A stretch of 64,000 nt of DNA from Escherichia coli (lineage in GTDB: Bacteria > Pseudomonadota > Gammaproteobacteria > Enterobacterales > Enterobacteriaceae): NCBI RefSeq assembly GCF_965641715.1, contig NZ_OZ282453.1; one strand, 5' to 3'. Below, in pieces: positions 5,106-58,338 of the stretch; position 1 is the first letter of the stretch; each line of letters begins with the position of its first letter. Position numbers and translations under genes: made by a program. Below the pieces are notes generated by a model, which saw only the letters and a list, made by a program, of their open reading frames with translations, was not told the DNA's origin and ran no database searches.

Positions 5106-5934
5106 GACGATGCCCTCCGCTGATATTCAGGAAACGGTGAATATGAAGATTAGCCTTATCCGCCAGACGAATACGTTCAGCCTGCAAGTTAAGAAGGGTT
5201 TCTACCAGAACCTGATGCGCCTGCGGATCCGAAAGAGTTACCTTGCGCAGAGCACGTAGTGCAGTTGTTACATAGCTGAGTTTATGTAAGTCTTCATCAT
5301 TCAGACGAGTGAGGGCTGGGACAGTAGCCATGATGGCAGCCTCCGTATGCAATGGATAACTTCCACCACCGGAAACGCCAATTTCGCTGGTGGTGAACTG
5401 AGCAGGGTTGGCGTAACCGGCGCATACGGAAACCGGCGCACCTTTCGGTGCCCCCACCCAGCCCACCATAATTTGGGTATAGCTGAGTTGTAGCAACAAA
5501 AAAGACGCTAACGCGCCAATTGTCGCCGTATGCAATTCCAGGACGCCAATCCCGGCACCCGCTTTATAAGGTGCCTGAACAGTGTAACGTCCCGGAATGG
5601 CAGAATCAATGTGCTGGTGGTCCTTCACACTCAACAAAATCACGCCTGAATTTCCACAAAGGGCTAAAGCACTCATGCGGGTAGTCTTTGCGAAGATAGA
5701 TAACGCGCTGTGTTTCTGGTTCCCAACGAATAACATGGACATAAAGCCCTCTTCCGTCACGAAACCAGCGGTTAAGTTCCCGCACAACTCGCCCCCCACA
5801 GTCAGGTAAAGTTCTCTGTGGTTACTTACAGCCAGGTGATTTGGTAATCTGCATTCATGCCGTAACAACAGGTGTTCAGCGACACTGACCACCAGCTGTT
5901 GCGACAAACGGTTATTTGCCGTTAAACTGTTCAT
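5098..5934 (-). CDS. Hypothetical phage protein (early right operon)
   Basis: 278-aa ORF, co-oriented and overlapping neighbours; no motif recognised. Confidence 0.35.
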   Translation of the reverse strand: MNSLTANNRLSQQLVVSVAEHLLLRHECRLPNHLAVSNHRELYLTVGGELCGNLTAGFVTEEGFMSMLFVGNQKHSALSIFAKTTRMSALALCGNSGVILLSVKDHQHIDSAIPGRYTVQAPYKAGAGIGVLELHTATIGALASFLLLQLSYTQIMVGWVGAPKGAPVSVCAGYANPAQFTTSEIGVSGGGSYPLHTEAAIMATVPALTRLNDEDLHKLSYVTTALRALRKVTLSDPQAHQVLVETLLNLQAERIRLADKANLHIHRFLNISGGHRHA

Positions 5935-7949: not shown

Positions 7950-8025
7950 AACCCCACCACAACAGCCACTGCTTTGGCGGTACCAGTTTGTACACTTGCT
8001 TCCGGCTGGTACCGCTCTTTTTACA
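7950..8025 (+). ncRNA. DicF-like small RNA / terminator hairpin (approximate bounds)
   Basis: TTTGGCGGTACCAGTTT ... CTGGTACCGCT stem followed by CTTTTT; resembles the recalled DicF 3' structure in the analogous operon position. Confidence 0.3.
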
Positions 8026-8159
8026 AAACAGAGAAGAGCATCACCGGACGACGGGCTCATAACCCAATCCATCCGGGCGGCTGCCACCGCAGGTGTTCTT
8101 CTCTGTTTTGTGGAGAAACCAACCGACCTTGCAGGGTCGATATGATGAGGAGCAGCAAA

Positions 8160-8522
8160 ATGGCTAGCGAACGCAGTACTGATGTGCAGGCATTTATCGG
8201 GGAGCTGGACGGCGGCGTATTTGAAACCAAAATCGGCGCAGTTCTCAGTGAAGTCGCTTCCGGTGTGATGAACACGAAAACCAAAGGTAAGGTCTCACTC
8301 AACCTGGAAATCGAACCATTTGATGAGAACCGTGTGAAAATCAAACACAAACTCTCATATGTTCGCCCGACTAACCGCGGGAAAATTTCCGAAGAAGACA
8401 CCACCGAAACGCCGATGTATGTCAATCGCGGTGGTCGCCTGACTATTCTGCAGGAAGACCAGGGACAATTACTGACTCTTGCCGGTGAACCTGACGGAAA
8501 ACTCCGCGCAGCAGGTCATTAA
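8160..8522 (+). CDS. YfdP-like phage protein
   Basis: 120 aa from the ATG after GAGGAG; the ORF track starts earlier at 7929; first gene of the yfdP-T-like module. Confidence 0.4.
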   Translation: MASERSTDVQAFIGELDGGVFETKIGAVLSEVASGVMNTKTKGKVSLNLEIEPFDENRVKIKHKLSYVRPTNRGKISEEDTTETPMYVNRGGRLTILQEDQGQLLTLAGEPDGKLRAAGH

Positions 8523-8587
8523 TATCGTTCTTAATTAACTGATTATTTATCTCATCACTGAATATCTTTATATAGTGAGGACTTATT

Positions 8588-9412
8588 ATGTCTCAGAACT
8601 TAGACGCAACCGCAATTAATCAAATCCATGCCCTTATTTCTGCTCAGGGTGTTAATGAAATTATCAGTAATATTGGTGCCGATGCTGTGGCATTGCCTGA
8701 GAATTTCCGCATTCATGATCTGGAAAAATTTAATTTAAATCGCTTCCGTTTCCGTGGTGCGCTTTCCACTGCCAGCATCGATGACTTTACCCGTTATTCT
8801 AAAGATCTTGCAGATGAAGGCACCCGCTGCTTTATCGATGCTGATAATATGCGTGCCGTCAGTGTACTTAACCTGGGTACTATTGATGAACCAGGTCACG
8901 CAGATAACACCGCCACTCTCAAACTGAAAAAGACAGCACCGTTCTCTGCCCTGTTGTCTGTTAACGGCGAGCGTAACTCCCAGAAGTCACTGGCAGAATG
9001 GATTGAAGACTGGGCCGACTACCTTGTGGGCTTTGATGCTAATGGTGACGCTATTCAGGCAACAAAAGCGGCTGCGGCAGTCCGTAAAATCACGATTGAA
9101 GCAAACCAGACCGCTGATTTTGAAGATAATGACTTCAGCGGCAAACGCTCCCTGATGGAGTCTGTCGAAGCGAAGACCAAAGACATTATGCCAGTGGCAT
9201 TTGAATTTAAATGCGTTCCGTTTGAAGGTCTGAAAGAACGTCCGTTTAAATTACGCCTCAGCATTATCACTGGCGATCGTCCTGTACTGGTTCTGCGCAT
9301 TATTCAGCTGGAGGCGGTGCAGGAAGAAATGGCTAACGAATTTCGTGATCTGCTTGTTGAGAAATTCAAGGACAGCAAAGTAGAAACCTTTATTGGTACT
9401 TTCACCGCCTGA
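8588..9412 (+). CDS. YfdQ-like protein (DUF2303 family)
   Basis: 274 aa; length and sequence match recalled K-12 CPS-53 YfdQ. Confidence 0.5.
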
Positions 9413-9539
9413 TTTCATTACTGCAAATGCCCCTGCGGGGGCATTTATGGAAACGTAATTTACTCAATAATCGCCGGATGGTGAGGGATTCTTTTTACCA
9501 GAATTCAGCGCGGTGCAGCGCATATACGTGGAGAACAAA

Positions 9540-10076
9540 ATGTCATTTATCAAAACTTTTTCTGGGAAGCATTTTTATTATGACAGGATAAATAAAGACG
9601 ACATCGATATTAACGATATCGCGGTTTCCCTTTCAAATATCTGTCGCTTTGCCGGTCATCTTTCGCACTTCTACAGCGTCGCCCAACATGCGGTTCTTTG
9701 CAGCCAGCTGGTGCCGCAGGAATTTGCTTTTGAAGCGTTAATGCATGATGCAACAGAAGCGTATTGCCAGGACATTCCCGCACCACTGAAACGCCTTCTT
9801 CCTGACTATAAACGGATGGAAGAAAAAATAGACGCCGTAATCCGTGAGAAATACGGGTTACCCCCGGTTATGAGTACACCCGTGAAATATGCCGATCTCA
9901 TCATGCTGGCAACCGAACGCCGCGATCTCGGGCTTGATGATGGCTCTTTCTGGCCTGTACTGGAAGGCATCCCGGCAACAGAGATGTTCAACGTGATTCC
10001 ACTGGCACCGGGCCATGCCTACGGGATGTTTATGGAACGTTTTAACGATTTATCGGAGTTACGCAAATGCGCATGA
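9540..10076 (+). CDS. HD-domain 5'-deoxynucleotidase (YfdR-like)
   Basis: 178 aa starting MSFIKTFSGKHFYYD; HD motif region HFYSVAQHAV ... MHDATEAY. Confidence 0.6.
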   Translation: MSFIKTFSGKHFYYDRINKDDIDINDIAVSLSNICRFAGHLSHFYSVAQHAVLCSQLVPQEFAFEALMHDATEAYCQDIPAPLKRLLPDYKRMEEKIDAVIREKYGLPPVMSTPVKYADLIMLATERRDLGLDDGSFWPVLEGIPATEMFNVIPLAPGHAYGMFMERFNDLSELRKCA

Positions 10077-10429
10077 ATGTTTTCGAAATGGAAGGGTTTC
10101 TTCGCGGGAAATGTGTACCGCGAGATCTGAAAGTGAACGAAACAAATGCTGAGTACCTGGTACGTAAATTCGACGCGCTTGAAGCTAAATGTGCGGCACT
10201 GGAAAACAAAATAATACCAGTGTCAACTGAACTGCCACCAGCAAATGAAAGTGTTCTGTTATTTGATGCTAATGGAGAAGGCTGGCTGATTGGCTGGCGT
10301 TCTCTCTGGTACACCTGGGGACAAAAAGAAACCGGAGAATGGCAGTGGACATTTCAGGTCGGGGACCTTGAAAACTTCAATATCACTCACTGGGCAGTAA
10401 TGCCCAAAGCGCCGGAGGCTGGAGCATAA
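10067..10429 (+). CDS. YfdS-like phage protein
   Basis: 120 aa; overlaps neighbours by 10 nt and 1 nt, suggesting coupled translation. Confidence 0.4.
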   Translation: MRMNVFEMEGFLRGKCVPRDLKVNETNAEYLVRKFDALEAKCAALENKIIPVSTELPPANESVLLFDANGEGWLIGWRSLWYTWGQKETGEWQWTFQVGDLENFNITHWAVMPKAPEAGA

Positions 10430-11049
10430 TGACCACATTTACCAATAAAGAACTGATTAAAGAAATCAAAGAACGAATCAGCAGCCTAGAGGTTCGAGAC
10501 GATATTGAGCGCCGTGCTTATGAAATTGCTCTGGCATCGCTGGAAGAGGAGCCGGTGGCATGGCTGCATTCAGACAATGGCTTAGGTATTCCGGCAATAA
10601 CCAGGAGCAAAAACATTGCTGACAGTTGGTTATCAATGGGCTGGTATGTTCAGCCGCTATATATAGCCAAGCCAGTACTGGTGGTGCCAGATGCTCGTCC
10701 GTCTTTAAATAATGGCATAGTCGGTTTTGATGAAGGCTGGAACGCCTGCCGCGCCACCATGCTTCATGGTGCCAAACCTGTAAGCCAGACTTACAAGTTG
10801 AACAAGCTGCCGGGCAACTCTCCGGTAACTCAGGATGGTTGGATAAGCTGTAGTGAGCGAATGCCGAACGATAAACAGTATGTTTGGTGTTGGGGTAAGT
10901 CTTACGGCTGGACTGAGTGCGATACCTTCGAAGGGTATTACGATTGGTCGAGAAACAAATGGTGGGCAGTTACTGACGATGGGGAAGAACCGGCATCGAA
11001 AGTAACCCACTGGATGCCGCTACCGGAGCCACCGCAGGAGGTGAAGTAA
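10429..11049 (+). CDS. Phage protein with DUF551-like C-terminus (YfdT-like)
   Basis: 206 aa; C-terminal WWAVTDDGEEPASKVTHWMPLPEPP resembles DUF551. Confidence 0.4.
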   Translation: MTTFTNKELIKEIKERISSLEVRDDIERRAYEIALASLEEEPVAWLHSDNGLGIPAITRSKNIADSWLSMGWYVQPLYIAKPVLVVPDARPSLNNGIVGFDEGWNACRATMLHGAKPVSQTYKLNKLPGNSPVTQDGWISCSERMPNDKQYVWCWGKSYGWTECDTFEGYYDWSRNKWWAVTDDGEEPASKVTHWMPLPEPPQEVK

Positions 11050-11243
11050 TGAACAACTTAATGACAACTAAACAAGTCGCCGACTTCTGTGGCGTTTCAG
11101 TATCGACCGTTCTTCGCTGGAACAGCGTAAACAGGAGAACTGGCCAGAAATACAGGCCTGACTTTCCAGATCCTGATATTAAATCCTGCCCAAATAAATG
11201 GGCATCACGCAAGATATACAGGTTTGCTGGAGTTATTGAGTGA
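11049..11243 (+). CDS. AlpA-family HTH protein / putative excisionase
   Basis: 64 aa; TTKQVADFCGVSVSTVLRWN HTH typical of AlpA/Xis-like regulators; lies upstream of the int region. Confidence 0.55.
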   Translation: MNNLMTTKQVADFCGVSVSTVLRWNSVNRRTGQKYRPDFPDPDIKSCPNKWASRKIYRFAGVIE

Positions 11244-11278
11244 TGGGTATTAGCTCATATCAGAACTAATACCCATCA
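11241..11278. promoter_or_regulatory. Perfect 13-bp inverted repeat immediately after the xis-like stop codon
   Basis: TGATGGGTATTAG-N12-CTAATACCCATCA; no T-run follows, so a protein-binding site or RNA stem is as likely as a terminator. Confidence 0.3.
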
Positions 11279-11445
11279 ATGACACAGAGCCAACTACCCA
11301 CCCTGTGTCAGGGGCTAACTTTTAACACCATAATTCACCGCTAGATAAAAACTGTATTGCATTGCACGAGCGGCGCAGCATTATCAGTTAGAGTGTCTTT
11401 ACCTTGTTAGGCTCCACAGTTCGCACTGTCCAACGCCTGTCACTT

Positions 11446-14400
11446 TCACACGCTGCGCCTTCGAGAATATTCATTTAATCGCTGATAACGAACATCTTGC
11501 TCCAGTTGTGGAGCAGCTTGAACAATTTGAAGCAAGCATTGCCCCAACTCTCGAGGCCCCCAGTGTTGTTCGGCAATCACGGCATTCAGCAGGGATAGAG
11601 CGTCCGCAGGATATCGGCTGCAAATATCTGATTCTAGCAAAAGGCGAACGTCGTAGCTAAGGTGTTCGAGCGGTTGCAGCCAGTCCTGCACCACTGCCAA
11701 AGCCGCCGGAAATTCACCTCGGGCAGCAATCACCATACGAGTCAACGATTCGGATATGCGTGGGGTGGCCAAGTTGCGGGACTTTGGCCAAACCTGTTGC
11801 CAAAATGGCTGGACACGATTTTTCCAATACTCCTCGCGCTGATCGCCCGCACCTTCAAGTGCCTGGTATAACGCCTGCGCGGCTACCTCCAGACCTTCTT
11901 GTGGAAGAGCACTAATTGCCGTTCGGAACTCCTCCACGGTATATCCCTCGGTAGGGCCCAGAGCTGCATAAGTCAGGAAAATAGCGAATTGCTGCCGGTG
12001 CTCGCCAAGATCAGAATAGTGATTGGCGCTCTCCAAAAAATCTGACTTGAAAGCTATCAGCAACGGTTCATACAGGCGTGGCGACCAGAGGAAGCCTTCC
12101 CACACAGCTTTTGCTTCGACGGGATTACTCCAAGCAAACAAGGGCAATAGATACTGTTCGGTCCAAGGTCGATCTACGCGAAAAAATGCGATCAGCCGCG
12201 ACCCCAGCAACACCCGACCATGGCGGAATAGCTCTATCTGTACATTACACAATTTGGTGAAAAGTGTTTTCAATTCAACAGGAAGCAAATCATTGTCATT
12301 CGGGTTCTGTTTGAACCATAGGGTGATCAGTGATTGCGTGACATGCCCAATGGGATGATTGATCGCCGTAGAAACAGGATCATAGGTCTCAATTCCGTTT
12401 CGAATGGTGCTAGACTCTGGGCTTGTTTCTATCATCAGAACCCGACGACAAAGGGCCAGTAGAATCTCCTCGTGGCAGAGGATGGTCTTCGAAGCCTCCT
12501 CCATCCACCAAGTGACAGCGTGGGAAATCTCCTGAAGTACTGCGTCAGGCATGTCAAGCACCAACGGTGCGGCGTACCGCCACGAACGCAAAATCATCCC
12601 TGGTTCAGCCCAAGTCTGCAGAGCTTCACGCCACCGACCAACAGGCCACACATCATCTTGTGATAGTTTACGTAACGCATACAGACTGTGAAAAAAGCGC
12701 GTACGGCAAACATCACTCCAAGTGTCCTCATAGAAAGGCAGTCTTTCTGGCATAGGCTTTGCGAGCCATTGCACTAATTCCTGCCACTTACGGGGCGCAA
12801 TGTCGACATCTATACTCTCCTCGAAGCCTGGATCACCGGTTCCGCTCATCCAGTGAGAGAATTCATCACGCTCGTTGGTTGCCAGTTGCCATTTTGGGTA
12901 TGCTGTGGATATTTCCGTCAAACGTGTAGCCGCAGACTCTCCCAAAACAAGGCCCGCTCCCCTGAGCTTCTCTAGACACAACCAGACGGAATGAGCCACC
13001 AAATAATGCCACCTGTCTGCTTCCAAATTATCCTCGTACATCTCGCGCGGAGGCCCTGCCAAGATAGCAGTTTCCAGACGCTCTTGTGCAATTCCTGTCA
13101 GATGTCGTCCCTGCAAAACAAACAGTCTGAATACCTCTCGCCGAGTATCCGTGGCCCACAACCACCATGAACCGTCCTCTAACAACCAATTAACCCACCG
13201 CTCAGGTGGTATGCAGTTGTCTTGGCTTGCGGCAAACAGTGCCAGACGTTTGAAGGTGGGATATGGCAACTCAAACCAATTCTGAGCAATGCGCGAGGCC
13301 TGATCGCTGTCTTTGGCTCGAACGGCTAACCATGAATCCCGAAGTAATTCAATCAGGCTCACCCAATCGCGGAACCCCCGGTTCTGCCAGTGCGGAGTGA
13401 TGGACGGCAAATCCCAATGCGAGCGGTCGTGACGATCGTCGGACTCTCCCAACTCCCGCAACAAGTCCAGTGCATCACGCAACAACTGCTGAAAATCTTC
13501 CAACAGGTATGGCAAGGACGATTTCCATGACTCGTCAGCAAGGTCGAACAGGGTTGAACGTACGTAATCAGCAGTCAGCACCAGCTCCCAATCCACCAAT
13601 TGCTTGATTCGCAAGGGTTCATCAGTGCTGCTCGAATCGTCTTCACTATAGCGAAACGGCCGCCTCAACATAACCTTGGGAGAAAGCAACTCGCGTAACT
13701 CCAAGCGCAATGTAGTCGTCAAGCCTTCATTCTTTAAGCGGTTTTGCCAACGATACAAATCCAGGTTCTGCAATGGCGATTTCACACGACCACTAAGCAG
13801 AAGCCGCCATAAAGTAGACATAGGTGGACCAGGAATAGCCAGGGGGGAATGCAAGAGAATTTCATCTAACTCAGAAGTCTTACGCTCCCGCATCAGTGCT
13901 GCTAAGCGATCTAGTTCGCTCTCAATCAGAAACATCCAACGGTCGTGTATTTGTCCGCCGCGTTCAGCAATCCATATGATCAACCTAGGGTCGCCCAGAT
14001 AACGAACTAGCCAACGGGCTATATGGGACATTACGTCATCCCATTTGCTAGCACTGACACATCCAGAAACCAGCGACATCTGCGGGGCCAGCTCATAGGG
14101 CGCAGGACGCTGAACCAGACTGAATCGGAGTTTCGGGTCAATTTCGACATGCGGAGATACACAAAAGCGTGGCAGATCGCTGTATTTAAATCGTTCGTCC
14201 GAGAAAGCTTTCAATAACCAATCCAGCGGCGGTGCAGGATTGAGTTCCGCAAAGCGTTTTGCTGGTAAACCTGATTTATCTGACAAGGCCCACAACATCC
14301 GACCAACGAAATCGTCCTGACGAGTGCTGTCCTGCGGGCGGGCCAGAGCATGTTTGACGACTATAGCCTCTTTGCCCTGTATACCATCTCGATAAGTATC

Positions 14401-15273
14401 TGCCCAAGCGTGCAACGTTTGATGCAGCACTGAATGATCAGTGGAGCTCGCCGGTACGGTGTAAAGGATAGGAGTGACCCCTTTGGCCTCCCACTCGATG
14501 GCTTTCCGGTGCTCCTGCCCCGGCTCACACTCCCCCAGTGCCCATACTTGTGGTGTGACTTCACCGAGCCTCCGATCTGCTGCAAGCGCATCCATCATGT
14601 AGCGCAGTACCGGGTCGTTGATGCTGTAGCCAACGAAGCAGACCACATAGTTACGAAATAACTCACTCACAAAGCGAGCTGCCCAACGCTCAGTGAGATA
14701 AGCCAAGCCAAAGTCACCGCTGGTAACAACCAGACGATTCAGGGCAGTATCATCCGCCTTTTCCGGTAACAGCCCATGCAGGTATACAAGTCCATCCCAG
14801 CGGCTGTTTTTTGGAATTGGCAGCATCGGCGCTACATAGGCCTGAAAAGCCTGGCCTGTACGTTTAGCTGCCACATGAAAGAGACGGTCAAAGTTGGTAG
14901 TGACCAATCGAAGGGCACCCTCGCGGCTACGGGCTAAACGTAACAGCGCCGCCTGAGTATCAATAGCGCCCCTACGACGGAGCTTTGGCTTAAGGGCTTT
15001 TTCCAACGCGCGTCGGACGGCTATACGCTGCCCTGGTAAGCGCCGTTCCAGCAAATCTAATGTGCCGTCAAATTGCCCACGCTCGAAAACCTCACGCTCA
15101 ATTTCTGAAAGTGTTGTTCCGTTCCTCTGGTAAATTAGTTCTACCAACCCTTTGAAACCAGGTAAACCAGCAGGGTAGGAAATGCCTGCTCCACAGAAGA
15201 ACACAACGCGCCCTTCCTCGTGCGCCTGCAAAAGCTCATCAGGAATATCAGGGCCGTTGGTAATGAATTGCAT
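11446..15273 (-). CDS. Large SIR2-like domain protein (N-terminal SIR2-type NADase-like domain plus about 1000-aa C-terminal domain of unknown function); candidate anti-phage defence protein
   Basis: 1275-aa ORF; N-terminal motifs VVFFCGAGISYPAGLP, VTTNFDRL, VYLHG, VCFVGYSINDP; no P-loop seen downstream; sits between xis-like and int. Confidence 0.6.
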   Translation of the reverse strand: MQFITNGPDIPDELLQAHEEGRVVFFCGAGISYPAGLPGFKGLVELIYQRNGTTLSEIEREVFERGQFDGTLDLLERRLPGQRIAVRRALEKALKPKLRRRGAIDTQAALLRLARSREGALRLVTTNFDRLFHVAAKRTGQAFQAYVAPMLPIPKNSRWDGLVYLHGLLPEKADDTALNRLVVTSGDFGLAYLTERWAARFVSELFRNYVVCFVGYSINDPVLRYMMDALAADRRLGEVTPQVWALGECEPGQEHRKAIEWEAKGVTPILYTVPASSTDHSVLHQTLHAWADTYRDGIQGKEAIVVKHALARPQDSTRQDDFVGRMLWALSDKSGLPAKRFAELNPAPPLDWLLKAFSDERFKYSDLPRFCVSPHVEIDPKLRFSLVQRPAPYELAPQMSLVSGCVSASKWDDVMSHIARWLVRYLGDPRLIIWIAERGGQIHDRWMFLIESELDRLAALMRERKTSELDEILLHSPLAIPGPPMSTLWRLLLSGRVKSPLQNLDLYRWQNRLKNEGLTTTLRLELRELLSPKVMLRRPFRYSEDDSSSTDEPLRIKQLVDWELVLTADYVRSTLFDLADESWKSSLPYLLEDFQQLLRDALDLLRELGESDDRHDRSHWDLPSITPHWQNRGFRDWVSLIELLRDSWLAVRAKDSDQASRIAQNWFELPYPTFKRLALFAASQDNCIPPERWVNWLLEDGSWWLWATDTRREVFRLFVLQGRHLTGIAQERLETAILAGPPREMYEDNLEADRWHYLVAHSVWLCLEKLRGAGLVLGESAATRLTEISTAYPKWQLATNERDEFSHWMSGTGDPGFEESIDVDIAPRKWQELVQWLAKPMPERLPFYEDTWSDVCRTRFFHSLYALRKLSQDDVWPVGRWREALQTWAEPGMILRSWRYAAPLVLDMPDAVLQEISHAVTWWMEEASKTILCHEEILLALCRRVLMIETSPESSTIRNGIETYDPVSTAINHPIGHVTQSLITLWFKQNPNDNDLLPVELKTLFTKLCNVQIELFRHGRVLLGSRLIAFFRVDRPWTEQYLLPLFAWSNPVEAKAVWEGFLWSPRLYEPLLIAFKSDFLESANHYSDLGEHRQQFAIFLTYAALGPTEGYTVEEFRTAISALPQEGLEVAAQALYQALEGAGDQREEYWKNRVQPFWQQVWPKSRNLATPRISESLTRMVIAARGEFPAALAVVQDWLQPLEHLSYDVRLLLESDICSRYPADALSLLNAVIAEQHWGPRELGQCLLQIVQAAPQLEQDVRYQRLNEYSRRRSV

Positions 15274-15455
15274 TCCTTTTCCTCCTATCCAATGTGCACG
15301 TTCATTCGAGTAAATGAAGGCAAGGGGTTACATCTTATTATACCGACCGTGCAAATCCGGCTTCCTAGCAAGCTACTTTACTTGCCAACTCATAATGTCC
15401 GAACTCCGAACAAAGCGGACTGCTAGATTTGATTGCGTTCTAGCTACGCAAAATA

Positions 15456-16679
15456 TCATTTCGAGCCTGAACGAGTACAAGTAACAATCGATTCAACTCT
15501 CTCCCACCATGCCTGGTAGGCTTTACGCTGTTCTTCTAGATAATCACTCTTGTCATAAACTTGCCATACACCTGGCAGTTTATGACCGAGCATTATTTCA
15601 GCAATATGAGGCGCAGTAAGATCAGAAAAGTTTGTTCGTGCTGTTCGTCTCAAATCATGAAGAGACCAATGAGGAAATTGATACCCCAAACGCCGCCATG
15701 CGTACTGCATTAAATTGTAAGGCAGCGACTGCAATGATGTCCGACCAACTGGTTCCCTGCTTCCTTCCTTAGTAAAAAGCATATCGGAACCGTTGTTCAT
15801 AGAGATAACGTATTTTATAAGCTCTTCAACCGGTTCAATAATGGGCCGCTTTAGCGGTTTGCCTGTTATATCCCCTGTCTTATGTCGTTCTGGTGGTACA
15901 GTCCATATTTTATTAATGAAATCAAAATCGTCCACCTTGGCAGTAATTAGCTCTGAACTACGGCAACCAAAATGCAGCAATAGTTTAATGAAGGCCCGGT
16001 ATTTAGGAACCATTCGAGAACCATCGATCGCAGCATAAAGGATTTTAATTTCATCATGTGTCAGAAACCGTTTCTTCTGACCTTTACGGATATCCATATC
16101 TTTACCCGTGATATCCGACAGCGGGCGAGTTTCAATGAGCTTTCTCTTATACGCCCAGACATGGGCCTGCTTTGCGTTAATTAGCAATCGGTCTGCTATT
16201 GCTGGAGTCTTAGTGCTAAGAGGCTCCAGGACTTCTAACCAATCATGCAATGTAGCTGCATCGTGAGGGATATTCCCGATTTTAGAGAACAGGTGCAGCT
16301 CAAACGAGCGGAGTATCTGTTCAGAACCTTTTTTATTTTTTACACAATATGCTTCATACCAAGCACGGATCACAGATTCTACCGTCATGGCTTCAGTAGC
16401 TTTACGTTTTTCTGCCAGCTTGACCAATCGTGGATTGCGGTTTGACTCGAGTTCACCACGAAGACGGATAACTTCTTCTCTGGCCTCTTTTAGTCCAGTT
16501 GCCGGGTAAGTTCCGATATCAAGACGCTCACCTTTCCCCGCCCACTGATAACGATATTGGAACACTACGCGACCTTTCGGTGATACTCTAACAGACAGAC
16601 CATCACGATCGGATTTAACCAAAACCTTATCACGTTCCTTTCCAACGACTGAACGCAACCACGCATCAGACAGCGCCAT
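15456..16679 (-). CDS. int: Tyrosine recombinase / phage integrase with N-terminal arm-binding domain
   Basis: 407 aa; N-terminus typical of P4/CP4-57-like integrases; catalytic region with HDLRRT and LGHK motifs. Confidence 0.85.
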   Translation of the reverse strand: MALSDAWLRSVVGKERDKVLVKSDRDGLSVRVSPKGRVVFQYRYQWAGKGERLDIGTYPATGLKEAREEVIRLRGELESNRNPRLVKLAEKRKATEAMTVESVIRAWYEAYCVKNKKGSEQILRSFELHLFSKIGNIPHDAATLHDWLEVLEPLSTKTPAIADRLLINAKQAHVWAYKRKLIETRPLSDITGKDMDIRKGQKKRFLTHDEIKILYAAIDGSRMVPKYRAFIKLLLHFGCRSSELITAKVDDFDFINKIWTVPPERHKTGDITGKPLKRPIIEPVEELIKYVISMNNGSDMLFTKEGSREPVGRTSLQSLPYNLMQYAWRRLGYQFPHWSLHDLRRTARTNFSDLTAPHIAEIMLGHKLPGVWQVYDKSDYLEEQRKAYQAWWERVESIVTCTRSGSK

Positions 16680-16685
16680 TACTCA

Positions 16686-16750
16686 CCTTGTACAAATAAC
16701 AAAAAACCTCTGCTGTTTTGTACATTATGTACAAGCACATGTACAGATTT
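16686..16750. promoter_or_regulatory. Cluster of TTGTACA motifs, including a perfect palindrome, upstream of int; possible operator, arm site or att-proximal region
   Basis: TTGTACA at 16688; TTGTACAttaTGTACAA at 16717-16733; TGTACA at 16740; AT-rich region 16680-16900. Confidence 0.35.
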
Positions 16751-17064
16751 TTGATGAAAGTAACCTGATCAATTTAAAGTTACATGAAAGAATTTTCAAT
16801 CAAAGAAATCACATAACATCATGTTATTAAATGAGTTATATAATTATTACTCAATTAATTGAAAGGATTTTGAAAGAGTAAAAGAGCTTTTATTTGGGCT
16901 TAATTATTGGGGTGAGAAATAATGGCAAAAGTGCGGCGCTTCGCCACCTCTTGCAAATAAGGAGACAACGTCATAATTCTTTCTTCTTGAGTAAGCGGCA
17001 TCGCGCCGCGCTTGTTGAAAACGAAAAATTGCGGCTATTTTACCCATCAACGGGGGGGAGGCAA

Positions 17065-17742
17065 TCAGTGTTTACACAGGAGCTGCTCCAGTTCGTGCAA
17101 CGAAGAAACGGTCCAGGTGGGCGCGATGCCTTCTGGTTGCTCGCGATTGTGCGCATTCAGCCAGCAGGTCGCAAGCCCGGCGTTGATGCCACCGAGAATA
17201 TCGGACTCGGCAGTGTCGCCAACCATCAGCACGCGTGAACGGTCAGGATTGCCCGCCTGTTCCAGCGCATAATCGAAAATTTTCTTATTCGGTTTGGCAA
17301 CGCCAACTTCTTCGGAAATCACCAGCAAATCGAAGTAATCACGCAGGCCCGTCCGTTCCAGACGCACTTGCTGCAAGGCACTAAAACCGTTGGTGATGAT
17401 GCCGATTTTGGCGTTGCCACGAATGGCGTTAAGCAGAGAAACCGCGCCCGGCAGCGGCGTGCAGATTTCCGCCATCGCATTAATAAAGGCTTCGTTGAGT
17501 TTACCCGGCTCGACGTTCAGCCGTTCGGCCCAGCTCTCAAACCGCCCGTGCTGAAGCTGTAATGAAGTGATCGCGCCGTTTTGATAATCCACCCACAGTG
17601 GCTTGTTAACGGCCTGATAGTCCTGAAAATCTTCAGCGGTAAAGGTGACGCTGTAATCAAGAAACATCCGCTGCAGGCCGGTGAATGAGTCAAAGGTAAA
17701 CAGCGTTTCATCGGCATCAAAGAAAATCCAGTCCCACTTCAT
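17065..17742 (-). CDS. yjjG: HAD-family pyrimidine 5'-nucleotidase YjjG
   Basis: 225 aa; starts [15 protein letters not shown] (HAD motif I DxD); matches recalled K-12 YjjG and gene order. Confidence 0.85.
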
Positions 17743-19735: not shown

Positions 19736-19905
<170 letters not shown>

Positions 19906-20028: not shown

Positions 20029-20115
20029 GCGAAGGTGGCGGAATTGGTAGACGCGCTAGCTTCAGGTGTTAGTGTCCTTACGGACGTGGGGGTTCAAGTC
20101 CCCCCCCTCGCACCA
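20029..20115 (+). tRNA. leuQ: tRNA-Leu (anticodon CAG)
   Basis: 87-nt sequence GCGAAGGTGGCGGAATTGGTAGACGCG ... CCCTCGCACCA; anticodon loop CTTCAGGTG. Confidence 0.9.
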
Positions 20116-20143
20116 AAAACCACGTTGATATTGCTCGCACTGG

Positions 20144-20230
20144 GCGAAGGTGGCGGAATTGGTAGACGCGCTAGCTTCAGGTGTTAGTGTTCTTACGGAC
20201 GTGGGGGTTCAAGTCCCCCCCCTCGCACCA
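20144..20230 (+). tRNA. leuP: tRNA-Leu (anticodon CAG), one substitution relative to the flanking copies
   Basis: 87-nt copy; variable-arm difference GTGTTCTTACGG versus GTGTCCTTACGG. Confidence 0.9.
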
Positions 20231-20264
20231 AACGAGGCGATATCAAAAAAAGTAAGATGACTGT

Positions 20265-20351
20265 GCGAAGGTGGCGGAATTGGTAGACGCGCTAGCTTCA
20301 GGTGTTAGTGTCCTTACGGACGTGGGGGTTCAAGTCCCCCCCCTCGCACCA
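20265..20351 (+). tRNA. leuV: tRNA-Leu (anticodon CAG)
   Basis: 87-nt copy identical to the first. Confidence 0.9.
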
Positions 20352-50941: not shown

Positions 50942-51943
50942 TTATTTCAGCCATCCAGGCACGTTATATTCTGAGACATTCTCAATGGAATATGCATCTC
51001 TCCTGTCAGAACCTTTCTTACACTTCAACTCATTGAACCCCCATTTACCCTCTCTATTGGAATAAAATACAGTATATTTATCAGTATTAAACCCGAAATA
51101 TCTTTCATCCGGACGTGAAATATTCAACTCTCCACATTTAACCTGACTGCGCCATTCAAAATCTATGGTGCTTTTTAAAACGTAGTACGAAATATTCTCT
51201 ACATTTTTTGAAGCAAAAACTACTAAAATAGTAGATACTATAAATGCTCCGGCAAGTATAAATAACCTATACACACTTAATTTAGTCCCCAGAGTTAAAA
51301 AAGCAAAATAGATAATAAGTTGCATCAACATGAAGAAAATCAACAAAAAAGCCATCCCTTTCCAGAAATACTCAACCCATGGTGATAGTGTGATATTTAG
51401 ATTACTCAAACTTAAAAATAAACTGGAAGAAAAACTACTTGAGAATAAATATATAATTGGTATGACAGCTAAAGTCATAGACCTAATAATCATTAATTTT
51501 TTATTATTTTTAAATTCCAACTCTAATATAATAAAAACACCTCCCAGAAAAACAAATACTGAAAAAGCACTAAAAACGTATACAGAGACACTGACTGGAA
51601 AAATATTAATTGAAAGCACAAAAAACAAAAATATAAACCATGCAATAAGTGAACACCAGGCAGCACAACTATTCAAACTGTTTTTATTACTGAACTTGAC
51701 AAAATACCCCATATATTCTGTAATGCGATTTTCTTCCACTAATGCATAAAGAAGAATACCAACAAAGCACAGAGATAAAATAATATCTTTCCACAGATAT
51801 TTATAAGGGAGAAGTATAAAACCAAGGAGTAGATAAATTAGCAGAATGACATCTAATGCCTTAGTACAAAAATATTGTTTCACTCCTTGCAAGAACCGAA
51901 CATTCTCCATATGAATCCTTCTCCAGCTATTGATGAAACTCAA
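50942..51943 (-). CDS. AT-rich polytopic membrane protein (about 6-7 TM) with about 80-aa C-terminal soluble tail; occupies the mrr slot
   Basis: 333-aa ORF with visibly low GC (AT-rich); multiple long hydrophobic segments; no motif recognised. Confidence 0.5.
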   Translation of the reverse strand: MSFINSWRRIHMENVRFLQGVKQYFCTKALDVILLIYLLLGFILLPYKYLWKDIILSLCFVGILLYALVEENRITEYMGYFVKFSNKNSLNSCAAWCSLIAWFIFLFFVLSINIFPVSVSVYVFSAFSVFVFLGGVFIILELEFKNNKKLMIIRSMTLAVIPIIYLFSSSFSSSLFLSLSNLNITLSPWVEYFWKGMAFLLIFFMLMQLIIYFAFLTLGTKLSVYRLFILAGAFIVSTILVVFASKNVENISYYVLKSTIDFEWRSQVKCGELNISRPDERYFGFNTDKYTVFYSNREGKWGFNELKCKKGSDRRDAYSIENVSEYNVPGWLK

Positions 51944-52050: not shown

Positions 52051-54483
52051 ATGGCGGAACTGAACCTAAGTAACCTGACGGAAGCAGACATCATTACCAA
52101 ATGCGTTATGCCAGCCATTCTCAATGCAGGCTGGGACAACACAACGCAAATCAGACAGGAGGTCAAACTCCGGGACGGTAAAGTCATCGTACGTGGTAAA
52201 GTTGCGGCACGCAGAACGGTAAAATCTGCTGACATCGTGCTGTACCACAAGCCAGGCATTCCCTTAGCCGTGATTGAAGCAAAAGCCAACAAACATGAAA
52301 TTGGCAAAGGGATGCAACAGGGCATTGAATATGCGCGCCTGCTGGACGTTCCTTTTGTTTTTGCCACCAATGGTGATGGCTTTATCTTCCGCGATGCCAC
52401 CGCAGCTGAAGGTGAATGCCTTGAAAAGCAAATAACGCTGGATGACTTCCCCTCCCCCGCTGAACTCTGGCAAAAATTCTGCCTCTGGAAAGGATACACA
52501 CAAGCTCAGCTTCCGGTGATTACTCAGGACTATTACGACGATGGTAGCGGTAAATCGCCTCGTTATTATCAACTTCAGGCAATCAACAAAACCATTGAAG
52601 CCGTCTCCAACGGGCAAAACCGCGTTCTGCTGGTCATGGCGACCGGAACAGGGAAAACCTATACCGCATTCCAGATCATCTGGCGCCTGTGGAAATCAAA
52701 AAATAAAAAACGCATTCTGTTCCTTGCCGATCGCAACATTCTGGTCGACCAAACCAAAAATAATGATTTCCAGCCATTTGGTACGGCAATGACCAAAGTC
52801 AGCGGACGCACCATTGATCCCGCTTATGAAATTCACCTCGCGCTCTATCAGGCTATAACTGGCCCGGAGGAAGACCAAAAAGCGTTTAAACAAGTCGCAC
52901 CAGATTTCTTCGATCTGATCGTGATCGACGAATGCCATCGCGGCAGCGCATCCGAAGACAGCGCCTGGCGAGAGATCCTTGATTATTTCAGTTCCGCCAC
53001 CCAAATTGGCTTAACCGCCACGCCAAAAGAGACGCATGAAGTCTCCAGCACGGATTACTTCGGCGATCCGGTTTACGTCTACTCGCTAAAAGAAGGGATC
53101 GAAGACGGCTTCCTCGCCCCTTATAAAGTTGTCCGTGTTGATATTGATGTTGATCTGCAAGGCTGGCGCCCAACCAAAGGGCAAACTGACTTAAACGGCG
53201 AAGTGATCGACGATCGTATCTATAACCAGAAAGATTTCGATCGCACGATGGTAATCGACGAACGCACAGAACTGGTTGCCAGAACCATTACCGACTACCT
53301 CAAGCGCACCAATCCGATGGATAAAACCATCGTCTTCTGTAACGACATCGATCATGCAGAACGTATGCGCCGCGCCCTGGTTAATCTCAACCCGGAGCAG
53401 GTGAAAAAGAACGACAAATACGTCATGAAAATCACCGGCGATGATGAAATTGGCAAAGCTCAGTTGGATAACTTCATCAACCCGAAAAAACCGTACCCGG
53501 TTATCGCGACCACTTCAGAGCTGATGACCACCGGTGTGGATGCTAAAACCTGCAAACTGGTAGTACTGGACCAGAACATCCAGTCGATGACCAAATTCAA
53601 GCAGATTATCGGTCGTGGTACACGCATCGACGAACGTTACGGCAAACTCTGGTTTACCATCCTCGACTTTAAAAAAGCCACCGAACTGTTTGCCGATGAG
53701 CGTTTCGATGGCATTCCCGAAAAAGTCATGGATACCACACCAGAGGATATCGCCGATCCAGACTCTGATTTTGAAGAGAAACTCGAAGAAATCAGCGAAC
53801 ATGTCGACGAACAGGTAACAGGCGTTGATGAACCGCCTGCGCCACCATACCAGGTTAAAGATACCGATGATGTCGGCCCACTTCCGGAAGAAGACGAGAA
53901 GAAAATCCGCAAGTTTCACGTCAACGGTGTAGCGGTGGGCGTTATTGCCCAGCGTGTTCAGTATTACGACGCCGACGGTAAACTGGTTACCGAATCCTTT
54001 AAAGATTACACTCGCAAAACACTGCTCAAAGAATATGCCTCGCTGGATGACTTTACCCGCAAGTGGCAGGACGCCGATCGCAAAGAAGCGATCATTCACG
54101 AGCTGGAGCAACAGGGGATCATCTGGGAAGTACTGGCAGAAGAAGTCGGTAAAGATCTCGACCCATTCGACATGCTTTGCCACGTAGTGTATGGTCAGCC
54201 GCCGTTAACCCGCAAAGAGCGCGCCGAGAACGTGCGCAAGCGGAACTACTTCACAAAATACTCTGAAGCAGCGCAAGCCGTGCTCGATAATCTGCTGGAT
54301 AAATACGCCGATGCGGGCGTACAGGAGATCGAAAGTATTCAGGTGCTGAAACTTAAGCCATTCGACAGCATGGGCACCTTACCGGAGATTATTAAAACCG
54401 GATTTGGCGACCGTAACGGGTATAATCAGGCGCTCAGCGAGCTGGAAAACGAAATCTACCAATTACCGCCCCGCTCTGCTTAA
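52051..54483 (+). CDS. hsdR: Type I restriction enzyme R subunit (non-EcoKI size class)
   Basis: 810 aa; PD-(D/E)xK-like N-terminus; helicase motif [14 protein letters not shown] and motif II DECHRG. Confidence 0.85.
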
Positions 54484-54549
54484 CAACTCTCTTTTGTGCC
54501 TTCTGCAACCATCATGTTGCAGAAGGCCTTGTTTTTCATGGAATACAAC

Positions 54550-56019
54550 ATGTCTATCAGCTCAGTAATCAAATCATTACAAGATATTATGCGCAAAGAT
54601 GCCGGTGTGGACGGCGATGCGCAGCGTCTCGGTCAGCTCTCCTGGCTGCTATTTTTGAAAATCTTCGATGCCCAGGAAGAGGCGCTGGAACTGGAGCAGG
54701 ATAACTATCAATATCCGATCCCACAGCGTTATTTGTGGCGCAGTTGGGCCGCCAACGCGCAGGGCATTACCGGTGATTCCCTGCTGGAATTCGTTAATGA
54801 TGATCTGTTCCCGGCGTTGAAAAACCTCACTGCGCCTATCGATAAAAACCCACGCGGCTACGTGGTAAAGCAGGCGTTCAGCGATGCCTATAACTATATG
54901 AAAAACGGTACGCTACTGCGTCAGGTGATCAACAAGCTGAACGAAATTGACTTTACCAGCGCCAGCGAACGCCATCTGTTTGGTGATATTTACGAACAGA
55001 TCCTTAAAGATCTGCAATCTGCGGGCAATGCTGGCGAATTCTATACTCCACGCGCCGTCACTCGCTTTATGGTGGATCGCGTCGATCCGAAACTCGGCGA
55101 ATCCATTATGGACCCGGCCTGCGGTACGGGCGGTTTTCTTGCCTGCGCATTTGATCATGTAAAGAACAAATACGTGAAGAGCGTCGCCGATCATCAGACG
55201 CTGCAACAACAGATCCACGGTGTTGAGAAAAAACAGCTTCCGCACCTGCTGGCGACCACCAATATGCTGCTGCACGGCATTGAAGTACCGGTACAAATTC
55301 GTCACGACAACACCCTGAACAAACCGCTTTCCTCCTGGGATGAACAACTGGATGTCATTGTTACCAACCCGCCGTTTGGTGGCACGGAAGAAGATGGTAT
55401 TGAGAAGAACTTTCCAGCAGAGATGCAAACCCGCGAAACGGCGGATTTGTTCCTGCAACTGATTGTGGAAGTACTGGCGAAAAACGGTCGCGCGGCGGTG
55501 GTATTGCCGGATGGCACACTATTTGGCGAAGGCGTTAAAACCAAAATCAAAAAGCTACTTACCGAAGAGTGCAACCTGCATACCATCGTGCGCTTACCGA
55601 ATGGTGTGTTTAACCCCTATACCGGCATTAAAACCAACCTGTTGTTCTTTACCAAAGGTCAGCCAACCAAAGAGATTTGGTTCTATGAGCATCCGTATCC
55701 GGCGGGCGTGAAAAACTACAGCAAAACCAAGCCGATGAAGTTTGAAGAGTTTCAGGCGGAGATCGACTGGTGGGGTAACGAGGCCGATGGTTTTGCCAGC
55801 CGCGTCGAGAATGAGCAAGCGTGGAAAGTCAGCATTGATGACGTGATTGCGCGTAACTTCAATCTGGATATTAAAAACCCACATCAGGCGGAAACCGTCA
55901 GCCATGATCCGGACGAACTGTTAGCGCAGTATGCAAAGCAACAGGCGGAGATCCAGACGCTGCGTAATCAACTGCGCGATATTCTCGGCGCTGCGCTGTC
56001 TGGCAAGGAGGTTAACTGA
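54550..56019 (+). CDS. hsdM: Type I restriction-modification N6-adenine methyltransferase M subunit
   Basis: Motif IV NPPFGG; SAM-binding DPACGTGGFL; start could be 54496 or 54538. Confidence 0.85.
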   Translation: MSISSVIKSLQDIMRKDAGVDGDAQRLGQLSWLLFLKIFDAQEEALELEQDNYQYPIPQRYLWRSWAANAQGITGDSLLEFVNDDLFPALKNLTAPIDKNPRGYVVKQAFSDAYNYMKNGTLLRQVINKLNEIDFTSASERHLFGDIYEQILKDLQSAGNAGEFYTPRAVTRFMVDRVDPKLGESIMDPACGTGGFLACAFDHVKNKYVKSVADHQTLQQQIHGVEKKQLPHLLATTNMLLHGIEVPVQIRHDNTLNKPLSSWDEQLDVIVTNPPFGGTEEDGIEKNFPAEMQTRETADLFLQLIVEVLAKNGRAAVVLPDGTLFGEGVKTKIKKLLTEECNLHTIVRLPNGVFNPYTGIKTNLLFFTKGQPTKEIWFYEHPYPAGVKNYSKTKPMKFEEFQAEIDWWGNEADGFASRVENEQAWKVSIDDVIARNFNLDIKNPHQAETVSHDPDELLAQYAKQQAEIQTLRNQLRDILGAALSGKEVN

Positions 56020-57776: not shown

Positions 57777-57996
57777 TTCCCTCGCCCTCAAAAAACCAAT
57801 AAAGCGGCTAAATAGCCGCTTTATTCACATCACCAAAAATTATATTTCACGCTAAACTTCATCTTATTTTCATTAATTTTTAGCTGGACTTCCCCTGTAT
57901 TTACTGATGATATATCCAGGTATTTAGCGCGGTGCGGATGTGCGCCAACACACCCGCACCGCTAATCACAATCCCTATTTCTAAGGAATAGTAATC

Positions 57997-58338
57997 ATGA
58001 CTGACACGCATTCTATTGCACAACCGTTCGAAGCAGAAGTCTCCCCGGCAAATAACCGTCAATTAACCGTGAGTTATGCGAGCCGCTACCCGGATTACAG
58101 CCGTATTCCCGCCATCACCCTGAAAGGTCAGTGGCTGGAAGCCGCCGGTTTTGCCACTGGCACGGCGGTAGATGTCAAAGTGATGGAAGGCTGTATTGTC
58201 CTCACCGCCCAACCCGCCGCCGCCGAAGAGAGCGAACTGATGCAGTCACTACGCCAGGTGTGCAAACTGTCGGCGCGTAAACAAAAGCAGGTGCGGGAAT
58301 TTATTGGGGTGATTGCGGGTAAACAGAAAGTCGCCTGA
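57997..58338 (+). CDS. symE: SOS-induced toxin-like protein SymE
   Basis: 113 aa starting [34 protein letters not shown]; matches recalled K-12 SymE; adjacent to hsdS as in K-12. Confidence 0.8.

Follow-up and report, generated by a model that had tools for sequence, protein, structure and literature searches.

DSR2 depletes NAD+ and, in a chain of about 1005 residues, carries a sensor that binds a phage structural protein, the tail tube protein. Like Dsr1, it defends as a single protein, in which a SIR2 NADase at the N-terminus is followed by a large helical sensor at the C-terminus (Bacillus subtilis 29R; PDB entries 8k98, 8wyb and others). The same kind of SIR2 NADase occurs in ThsA, the type I Thoeris effector, where a C-terminal SLOG domain binds the signal made by ThsB in a two-gene system, and in KomC (PDB entry 8zsf), a 264-residue subunit of a multi-gene system. 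Avs5 (SIR2-STAND) and SIR2-HerA likewise have an N-terminal SIR2 NADase and defend against phages by depleting NAD+; in Avs5 a NOD/STAND ATPase separates effector from sensor, and SIR2-HerA requires an adjacent HerA ATPase. Dsr1 itself was reportedly named in 2020 by Gao et al., and the Escherichia coli protein EcDsr1 has the accession WP_029488749.1.

The function of E. coli Dsr1 has been described in two studies. The construct pBR322-Dsr1ECOR17, with dsr1 of strain ECOR17, protected MG1655 from a T4 clone without nrdC.5, and for this protection dsr1 and the 300 bp upstream of it were sufficient; deletion of dsr1 in ECOR17 restored infection, and T4 nrdC.5 acts as a counter-defence against Dsr1 (PMC9391042). 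A screen of 73 genes for EcDsr1-dependent toxicity yielded a single positive, the major capsid protein of phage ZL19; toxicity and defence were both lost when the NADase domain was disrupted, and EcDsr1 gave protection against no more than a few of the tested phages (bioRxiv 10.64898/2026.01.04.697583, preprint). The same preprint reports that the Dsr1 sensor is homologous to that of Avs7 and that both are triggered by major capsid protein (bioRxiv 10.64898/2026.01.04.697583). Depletion of NAD+ has been shown for a DSR1 expressed in B. subtilis (bioRxiv 10.1101/2021.12.14.472415).

Family assignment of the 1275-residue protein

The locus lies in a 64 000-nucleotide stretch of E. coli DNA (contig NZ_OZ282453.1), referred to here as the window. 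The initial annotation had proposed a 1275-residue SIR2-fusion protein, and the corresponding reading frame is present on the minus strand in the six-frame ORF list (Table 1). The frame is real, far beyond chance, because it gives a significant Pfam match to SIR2_2 together with full-length matches to family models. The NCBIfam equivalog NF041818.1 (Dsr1) scores 2056.9 bits against a cut-off of 1400, with residues 1–1271 of the protein aligned to model positions 1–1263, and the PADLOC Dsr1 model PDLC02183 scores 2732.7 bits and spans residues 1–1275 of 1275. A second PADLOC Dsr1 model, PDLC04167, also matches the 1275-residue protein (5.9e-194), and a third matches it in the SIR2 domain only, so that the DSR1 tested in B. 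subtilis may have a different sensor. Several complete E. coli genomes contain a gene of the same DNA sequence (100% identity), which RefSeq labels 'dsr1' (WP_048943335.1), and an identical protein in NCBI is titled 'MULTISPECIES: anti-phage defense-associated sirtuin Dsr1'. Judged from these matches, the gene encodes Dsr1 (defence-associated sirtuin 1) and is intact. The initial annotation had left it undecided whether the protein belonged to a described family or a new one and had pointed to a profile search of the DefenseFinder/PADLOC type; the NCBIfam and PADLOC results settle the matter as Dsr1, a family already described and curated in NCBIfam and PADLOC, and the gene is not new. A resemblance to DSR1/DSR2 had also been suggested. 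The first half of this comparison stands over the full length of the protein in both NCBIfam and PADLOC, whereas the likeness to DSR2 is confined to the SIR2 domain.

The protein shares its family models, species and RefSeq gene name with the published E. coli Dsr1 (EcDsr1, and the ECOR17 protein of PMC9391042), as well as the architecture of a SIR2 domain followed by a sensor of about 1000 residues with no NTPase. The comparison with ECOR17 consists of two cloning-primer sites and their spacing in the window: the dsr1 primers align with 0 mismatches at 15546–15573, which is the gene-specific part of primer SS-43 (minus strand), and at 11446–11461. At these sites the int–dsr1 junction and the stop-codon region match exactly, no difference being found there, and the primer spacing in the window gives a 300-bp upstream fragment, as published.

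Table 1. Features of the dsr1 locus, with nucleotide positions numbered along the window
Feature	Position	Strand	Basis or remark
xis, 64-aa excisionase (HTH, AlpA/MerR-like)	11049..11243	plus	PHROG phrog_1553, E 7.7e-36, 1–64 of 65
Intergenic region flanked by the stop codons of xis and dsr1, several strong hairpins	11244..11445	.	RNA fold
dsr1 coding sequence	11446..15273	minus	1275 aa + stop codon; ATG start; six-frame ORF list
C-terminal putative sensor region, residues 271–1275, predicted mostly α-helical solenoid	11449..14463	minus	Homologues and AlphaFold2
SIR2 (SIR2_2) NADase effector domain, residues ~1–270	14464..15273	minus	Pfam, KomC alignment, family conservation
Candidate catalytic H166	14776–14778	minus	Motif position; KomC alignment
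Candidate catalytic N127	14893–14895	minus	Motif position
GAGIS NAD-binding loop	residues 28–32	minus	Motif position
300 bp 5' of dsr1, 118 bp of them shared with the 3' end of int	15274..15573	minus	Same as the published 'native promoter' fragment cloned from ECOR17
GGAGG ribosome-binding site (Shine–Dalgarno)	~8 nt before dsr1 ATG	minus	Read from sequence
TATAAT, perfect	15337–15342	minus	63 nt before dsr1 ATG; read from sequence
int, 407-aa tyrosine integrase	15456..16679	minus	PHROG phrog_1, E 8e-76
Prophage/chromosome junction, 14-bp attachment core GGGTGAGAAATAAT	16910..16923	.	Adjoins yjjG

The SIR2 domain and the C-terminal region

All of the SIR2 motifs named in the initial annotation are found in the translation, and the N-terminal SIR2 domain that it proposed is significant on profile search (Pfam SIR2_2, PF13289; residues 123–269, E 1.4e-23). 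The segment VVFFCGAGISYPAGLP contains the GAGIS loop; VTTNFDRL places TTNFD at residue 125, and hence N127; VYLHG places YLHG at residue 164, and hence H166; and VCFVGYSINDP places VGYS at residue 214. The Dsr1 family profile matches the solved SIR2 NADases KomC, ThsA and DSR2. The KomC NADase (PDB entry 8zsf) aligns with Dsr1 residues 12–245 and sets H166 opposite KomC H146, the catalytic histidine that is mutated in PDB entry 9xvc; this histidine is thus conserved in Dsr1, which differs from KomC in working without a partner. The asparagine and histidine columns are near-invariant across 92 Dsr1 homologues, and both N127 and H166, as read from the translation, are intact in the window protein.

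The remaining 1000 or so residues, for which structure prediction and a fold search had been recommended, are confidently predicted to form an α-solenoid that is common to thousands of Dsr1 proteins. The AlphaFold2 model (pLDDT 92.1, pTM 0.89) consists of nearly all helices, and a fold search of the sensor against AFDB50 returned Dsr1-family models at TM 0.85–0.92. Queried separately, the sensor has 2821 relatives (50%-cluster level), and the best 150 of these 2821 have the Dsr1 layout, with the sensor beginning near residue 270. Fusions to other effectors were sought with the same query, and the best 120–150 matches were all SIR2_2/Dsr1 proteins. The Pfam search of residues 271–1275 found no family, the PDB fold search gave generic HEAT/ARM matches with no specific solved relative, and no solved Dsr1 structure turned up among the PDB entries searched. 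Some of the sensor relatives are labelled DUF4020 in AFDB.

With respect to Avs7, the family-profile search and the sensor fold searches gave no Avs7 entry among the PDB matches. An AFDB50 match titled 'ATP-binding protein (Fragment)' has the Dsr1 sensor fold (TM 0.82, 34% identity). The two systems differ in the rest of the chain: Avs7 (SeAvs7) combines a STAND NTPase and a TPR sensor with a Cap4 nuclease, whereas Dsr1 has a SIR2 NADase and neither a STAND module nor a Walker A motif.

The protein had been described as lacking a Walker A/P-loop and as unlike ThsA, SIR2-HerA and Avs5, and these distinctions hold. A motif scan for Walker A ([AG]xxxxGK[ST]), GK[ST] and hhhhD[DE] was negative throughout the 1275 residues; with no Walker A/B-type motif and no PADLOC Avs match, identity with Avs5/SIR2-STAND is rejected, Dsr1 having no P-loop where Avs5 has its ATPase. 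PADLOC ThsA matches Dsr1 at residues 13–230 (E 3.2e-05). This match covers the SIR2 part only, residues 271–1275 contain no Pfam domain (the SLOG domain included), and the neighbours are xis and int, with no ThsB (TIR), so that ThsA was also discarded; in place of a partner-made signal, Dsr1 has its own 1000-residue sensor. SIR2-HerA was set aside in the same way, as there is no further sizeable ORF between xis and int and the PHROG-identified neighbours do not include HerA.

Prophage context and the xis–int slot

The gene was said to lie between an AlpA/Xis-like gene and an integrase, in the orientation of the latter, and both neighbours are recovered by PHROG with significant matches (Table 1). 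In the ORF list dsr1 is the sole sizeable ORF between xis and int; it is co-directional with int and converges on the early genes of the plus strand, and xis is convergent with it. Matching genomes list the integrase as WP_001218277.1, a tyrosine-type recombinase/integrase, and xis is unannotated in a RefSeq record with the same dsr1. In the xis–dsr1 intergenic region, the minus-strand RNA folds at −68.9 kcal/mol (z = −3.16 versus shuffles), the plus strand has hairpins too, and one terminator-like site was called, at 11301–11313 (plus strand). These hairpins probably act as terminators serving both genes. Upstream of dsr1, a consensus promoter scan found no full sigma-70 −35/−10 pair, and the number of sites was not above that in shuffles; from the elements listed in Table 1 we infer the location of the dsr1 promoter.

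The attachment core at the prophage/chromosome junction is the reverse complement of a 14-bp feature that LC727881.1, the record of an Stx2c-converting phage, labels 'duplication due to insertion'. This record is 99.6% identical to the window at 7955–17321 and encodes a Dsr1 with 99.8% amino-acid identity. The host element is a lambdoid, Stx2c-phage-like prophage integrated beside yjjG in E. coli.

Full-length dsr1 is present in 71 of 5426 E. coli genomes. Each copy in these complete genomes (about 71) has at least about 93.8% DNA identity to that in the window, and 66 records reach at least 99%. The integrase family is more widespread (about 699 of 5426 genomes), and the xis–int slot holds Dsr1 in about 70 of these roughly 699 genomes. 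In at least one genome the slot holds an anti-phage dCTP deaminase, and elsewhere it holds genes of 331, 436+81 and 413 residues, none of which has a match in Pfam, NCBIfam or PADLOC. The accessions of these unmatched proteins are WP_000653746.1, WP_015740443.1, beside which the 81-residue protein is encoded, and WP_052993680.1. As far as these genomes indicate, the contents of the slot vary among related prophages, in agreement with the proposal in the initial annotation that it is a place for prophage cargo. A more tentative suggestion, somewhat likelier to be wrong than right, is that the xis–int slot of yjjG-integrating lambdoid prophages is a dedicated defence hotspot and that the genes of 331, 436+81 and 413 residues could be undescribed defence genes. 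In Rahnella and Vibrio cholerae, homologues about 80% identical to Dsr1 have neighbours unrelated to one another and to those at the window locus. By this comparison of neighbourhoods, Dsr1 appears as a stand-alone gene without a conserved partner.

Proposed mode of action and alternatives

The explanation that we consider very probable is that the gene encodes an intact, stand-alone Dsr1, carried as prophage cargo, in which a capsid-sensing solenoid triggers NAD+ hydrolysis by the SIR2 domain and so halts the phage. The C-terminal α-solenoid would be the sensor and, following the published work on E. coli Dsr1, would respond to the phage major capsid protein produced in infection. Sensing would switch on the N-terminal SIR2 domain, probably by conformational change or oligomerization as in DSR2 and the Avs proteins. 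With N127 and H166 as its catalytic residues, the domain would then hydrolyse NAD+, and phage replication would stop for lack of it. The present analysis establishes the family of this protein, its domain layout, its intact catalytic residues and its setting as mobile cargo, and shows that it has neither an NTPase nor a conserved partner gene. Phage protection, counter-defence by nrdC.5, the capsid trigger, the dependence on the NADase and the depletion of NAD+ are taken from the literature on this locus or family.

How the host fares on activation is a separate matter. With the DSR1 tested in B. subtilis, the fall in NAD+ was only transient, with later recovery, and phi29 infection did not make the culture collapse (bioRxiv 10.1101/2021.12.14.472415; summarized in PMC10952713), as would be expected if Dsr1 were an NADase that causes a transient, non-lethal dip in NAD+, blocking the phage while the native host survives, with no abortive infection. 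We regard this as rather unlikely for the present protein. Co-expression of EcDsr1 with the ZL19 capsid protein led to cell death that depended on the NADase domain (bioRxiv 10.64898/2026.01.04.697583), although over-expression of the trigger may exaggerate toxicity, and the protein tested in Bacillus may be a different Dsr1 subtype.

The layout of an N-terminal SIR2 domain and a large helical C-terminus is common to Dsr1 and DSR2, and over residues 18–148, in the SIR2 region, the family profile finds a weak match to the solved DSR2 (E 0.0014). That the window protein is DSR2-like, with a C-terminal domain of DSR2 type as its sensor for the phage tail tube protein, is nevertheless very improbable. 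There is no PADLOC Dsr2 match (E up to 0.1), the profile similarity covers the SIR2 domain only and DSR2 is absent among the fold matches listed, by which DSR2 identity is effectively refuted; moreover, the DSR2 sensor is unrelated to that of Dsr1, the trigger reported for EcDsr1 is a capsid protein rather than the tail tube protein, and the lengths differ (about 1005 versus 1275 residues). Still further from the evidence is a protein with no defence role, whether a housekeeping protein deacylase of the sirtuin type or an inactive remnant, a reading to which we give next to no credence. SIR2 domains are also found in deacetylases of the CobB type, and at the NAD-binding loop the family profile gives weak matches to human SIRT2 and SIRT3 (E ~0.002–0.015), but the domain here is SIR2_2 (PF13289), as in ThsA and the DSR proteins. 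The gene is not a housekeeping gene, because it is prophage cargo found in only 71 of 5426 E. coli genomes. Against a remnant, the gene is 100% identical across several genomes, and the full-length frame with N127 and H166 intact led to rejection of the pseudogene reading. The same locus is protective in ECOR17 and MG1655, and the absence of a defence role is thereby contradicted by published knockout and complementation (PMC9391042).

For the gene itself, very little is new: Dsr1 is named and modelled, RefSeq annotates it automatically, and phage tests on the same locus in E. coli are already published, so that the 1275-residue SIR2-fusion candidate is a correct rediscovery of Dsr1. What the window offers is a clean native context, with Dsr1 as xis–int cargo in a prophage that is lambdoid, resembles an Stx2c phage and occupies the yjjG site. 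The xis–int slot of related prophages is a practical place in which to seek new defence genes, because other defence genes sit there together with several genes that have no match in Pfam, NCBIfam or PADLOC.

Family membership of Dsr1

A single 1275-residue reading frame with an ATG start is present in the six-frame list at the position and length reported in the initial annotation, and its translation contains all four of the SIR2 motifs quoted there: GAGIS at residue 28, TTNFD at 125 (N127), YLHG at 164 (H166) and VGYS at 214. The reported absence of a P-loop was borne out by a pattern search of the whole protein, which found no Walker A, GK[ST] or Walker-B-like hhhhD[DE] sequence.

The protein is a full-length match to the NCBIfam equivalog NF041818, 'anti-phage defense-associated sirtuin Dsr1' (2057 bits; curated cut-off 1400 bits), and to the PADLOC model PDLC02183, 'Dsr1' (2733 bits, positions 1-1275 of 1275). 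A second PADLOC Dsr1 model is also matched (5.9e-194), while the ThsA, SIR2 and LmuA models match weakly and within the first ~230 residues only; no Dsr2 or Avs model was matched in the PADLOC search. Pfam SIR2_2 aligns with residues 123-269 (E = 1.4e-23). At the DNA level, the gene is 100% identical to annotated dsr1 genes of several complete E. coli genomes, among them that for WP_048943335.1 in strain 1916D18. The exact protein is present in NCBI, where it is the representative of 418 sequences clustered at 90% identity. Of 5426 complete genomes, 71 carry full-length dsr1, which is always chromosomal; identity to the window gene reaches 99% or more in 66 records. The choice between a described and a new family, previously left open, is settled by NF041818, PDLC02183 and the RefSeq annotation: judged by its sequence, this is the described family Dsr1. 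The initial observation is confirmed and its interpretation supported, and the feature is a defence gene that is already known, annotated and tested.

Prophage context and neighbouring features

ORF and PHROG matches bear out the original description of the position: dsr1 is flanked by xis and int, shares the orientation of int and converges on the early genes. The upstream early genes (yfdP, yfdQ, yfdR and a DUF551 gene, all on the + strand) are typical of a lambdoid, CPS-53-like prophage. The record of the Stx2c-converting phage LC727881.1 is 99.6% identical to window 7955-17321, its Dsr1 shows 99.8% amino-acid identity, and the 14-bp GGGTGAGAAATAAT is annotated there as a 'duplication due to insertion'. 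This sequence marks the prophage end adjoining yjjG.

Features of the window and of related prophages (L006-L009, loci compared with the window)
Feature	Coordinates	Strand	Match or remark
C4 antisense RNA	5386-5473	-	Rfam, 80.7 bits
isrK Hfq-binding RNA	5498-5574	-	Rfam, 61.2 bits
DUF551 ORF, 206 aa	10429-11049	+	intact
xis, 64-aa excisionase	11049-11243	+	phrog_1553, E 7.7e-36
xis-dsr1 gap, 202 bp	11244-11445		convergent
Variable slot equivalent	11244-15455		
dsr1, 1275 aa	11446-15273	-	
Reverse primer site	11446-11461		stop-codon end
Lone TATAAT	15337-15342		
int, 407-aa tyrosine integrase	15456-16679	-	phrog_1, E 8e-76
Forward primer site	15546-15573	-	0 mismatches
GGGTGAGAAATAAT	16910-16923		14 bp
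naRNA4	19807-19889	-	Rfam, 73 bits
Three tRNA-Leu(CAG) genes	20029-20351		
333-aa ORF	50942-51943	-	TTG start; 31% GC patch
EcoAI-family type IB genes	52051-57776	+	restriction-modification
hsdR	52051-54483	+	
hsdM	54496-56019	+	
hsdS	56019-57776	+	
SymR antitoxin RNA	57926-58002	-	
GmrSD-like protein, 697 aa	58385-60478	-	PADLOC Orf5, HEC-06 and type IV methyl-directed restriction models
Slot cargo, L006	5639-6634	+	
Slot cargo, L007	5263-6811	+	
Slot cargo, L009	5564-6805	-	
Slot cargo, L008	5215-6810	+	

The promoter of dsr1 is putative. No full promoter upstream of the gene was called by the consensus scan; a lone TATAAT and a GGAGG 8 nt before the ATG both fall within the 300-bp fragment shown by experiment to suffice. 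The minus strand of the xis-dsr1 gap folds at -68.9 kcal/mol (z = -3.16) into several long perfect hairpins without clear T-runs, which probably terminate the xis and dsr1 transcripts.

Several further features were observed in the window. The xis ORF is unannotated in RefSeq strain 1916D18, which has an identical dsr1 and ~99.4% identity to the window here; the DUF551 counterpart in that strain is two partial pseudogene fragments (compared locus L001:12984-13604), and the equivalent position in another genome is annotated with a 206-aa DUF551 protein. The C4 antisense and isrK RNAs lie side by side in the early/immunity region. Otherwise colinear dsr1-bearing prophages match the window from 1041; the unaligned 1-1040 (36% GC) contains no ORF of at least 150 aa. 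The nucleoid-associated noncoding RNA naRNA4, a REP-derived element, lies just upstream of the tRNA genes. A second defence cluster comprises the type IB genes, SymR and the GmrSD-like protein, the C-terminal ~100 aa of which also match PDC-S18. The 333-aa ORF occupies the usual place of restriction genes in the E. coli immigration-control region, with a YjiA-type GTPase gene on one side and the type I restriction genes on the other; searches of Pfam, NCBIfam and PADLOC gave no match to it.

Catalytic domain, sensor and function

The best sequence match among solved structures is the SIR2 NADase KomC (PDB entry 8zsf), aligned over residues 12-245 of the window protein. TTNFD pairs with TTNYD of KomC and H166 with H146, the residue mutated in PDB entry 9xvc, 'KomC(H146N)'. 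The TTN and His columns are nearly invariant in an alignment of 92 family members at 33-51% identity, and the profile from this alignment matches KomC, ThsA, DSR2 and eukaryotic sirtuins in the SIR2 region only.

Used alone as a query, the sensor (residues 271-1275) retrieved 2821 relatives from a set of representatives clustered at 50% identity; each of the best 150 shares the Dsr1 layout, in which the sensor begins near residue 270. The matches listed for 90%-identity clusters include homologues with 75-81% identity in the sensor, from Rahnella, Enterobacter, Pectobacterium, Vibrio cholerae, Halothiobacillus, Nitrogeniibacter, Propionivibrio and Ferrovum, a distribution that points to horizontal spread. 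According to a 2026 preprint (10.64898/2026.01.04.697583), E. coli Dsr1 (WP_029488749.1) has a sensor homologous to the TPR sensor of the STAND protein Avs7; Avs7 was absent from the matches listed in our PDB searches.

Protection has been reported for the dsr1 homologue of E. coli ECOR17 (Srikant et al., eLife 2022, PMC9391042). When it was disrupted, an evolved T4 clone from which nrdC.5 had been lost could infect again. Supplied on pBR322 together with 300 bp of its upstream sequence, the gene conferred protection on MG1655, which nrdC.5 expression overcame. The gene-specific part of the forward cloning primer (from the supplement of PMC9391042) matches exactly 300 bp upstream of the window ATG and the reverse primer lies at the end of the gene that carries the stop codon, so that window 11446-15573 is the counterpart of the tested construct. 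Of 73 genes screened, the one for the major capsid protein of ZL19, a Drexlerviridae phage, was reported as the sole activator of EcDsr1-dependent cell death; disruption of the NADase domain abolished toxicity and defence, and protection by EcDsr1 extended to only a few of the tested phages (10.64898/2026.01.04.697583). A DSR1 expressed in B. subtilis depleted NAD+ transiently and without culture collapse (Garb et al., bioRxiv 10.1101/2021.12.14.472415), and DSR1 is reported to be overcome by phage NAD+-reconstitution pathways (bioRxiv 10.1101/2024.02.11.579819). The DSR1 tested in Bacillus may be a different subtype, because the match of a third PADLOC Dsr1 model to the window protein is confined to the SIR2 part.

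The most likely account is that the α-solenoid sensor would bind a structural protein that the phage makes late in infection (in the phages studied, the major capsid protein). Binding would release or assemble the N-terminal SIR2 domain, a coupling that we infer, and this domain would hydrolyse NAD+ via N127 and H166 and so stop phage replication. The outcome in the native host may or may not be abortive.

The variable cargo slot and other Dsr1 contexts

The integrase family is present in 699 of 5426 genomes. Only ~65 carry the int allele at 99% identity or above, and those examined all carry dsr1; in many other integrase genomes, similarity to the window is lost 12-24 nt from the end of int that carries its stop codon. 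Four of these genomes were examined, each with the prophage at the same yjjG site. Strain H106 carries an anti-phage dCTP deaminase in the slot (PADLOC dCTPase, 1.6e-163), BH100N a 331-aa hypothetical gene, O103:H2 strain 129 436-aa and 81-aa hypothetical genes, and A33 a 413-aa hypothetical gene. The presence of different cargo in prophages at one site supports the reading of this interval as a cargo slot. The hypothetical genes have no PADLOC or NCBIfam match, nor do the three larger ones match Pfam; by position, they are candidate unknown defence genes.

Distant homologues of Dsr1 occur in mobile elements of unrelated kinds. The Rahnella homologue belongs to an integrase island that also contains an HNH gene and transposases. 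That of V. cholerae (77% sensor identity; L011:1-13524, contig BOEE01000007.1) has type I-F Cas genes (Csy3 and Csy4) on one side and TnsA/TnsB/TniB-like genes on the other, which places it among the cargo of a Tn7-like CRISPR-associated transposon. No conserved partner gene is shared across the window, Rahnella and V. cholerae neighbourhoods, and dsr1 is an autonomous gene. Leads of some novelty are confined to the alternative, uncharacterised slot cargo and the mechanism of Dsr1 activation.
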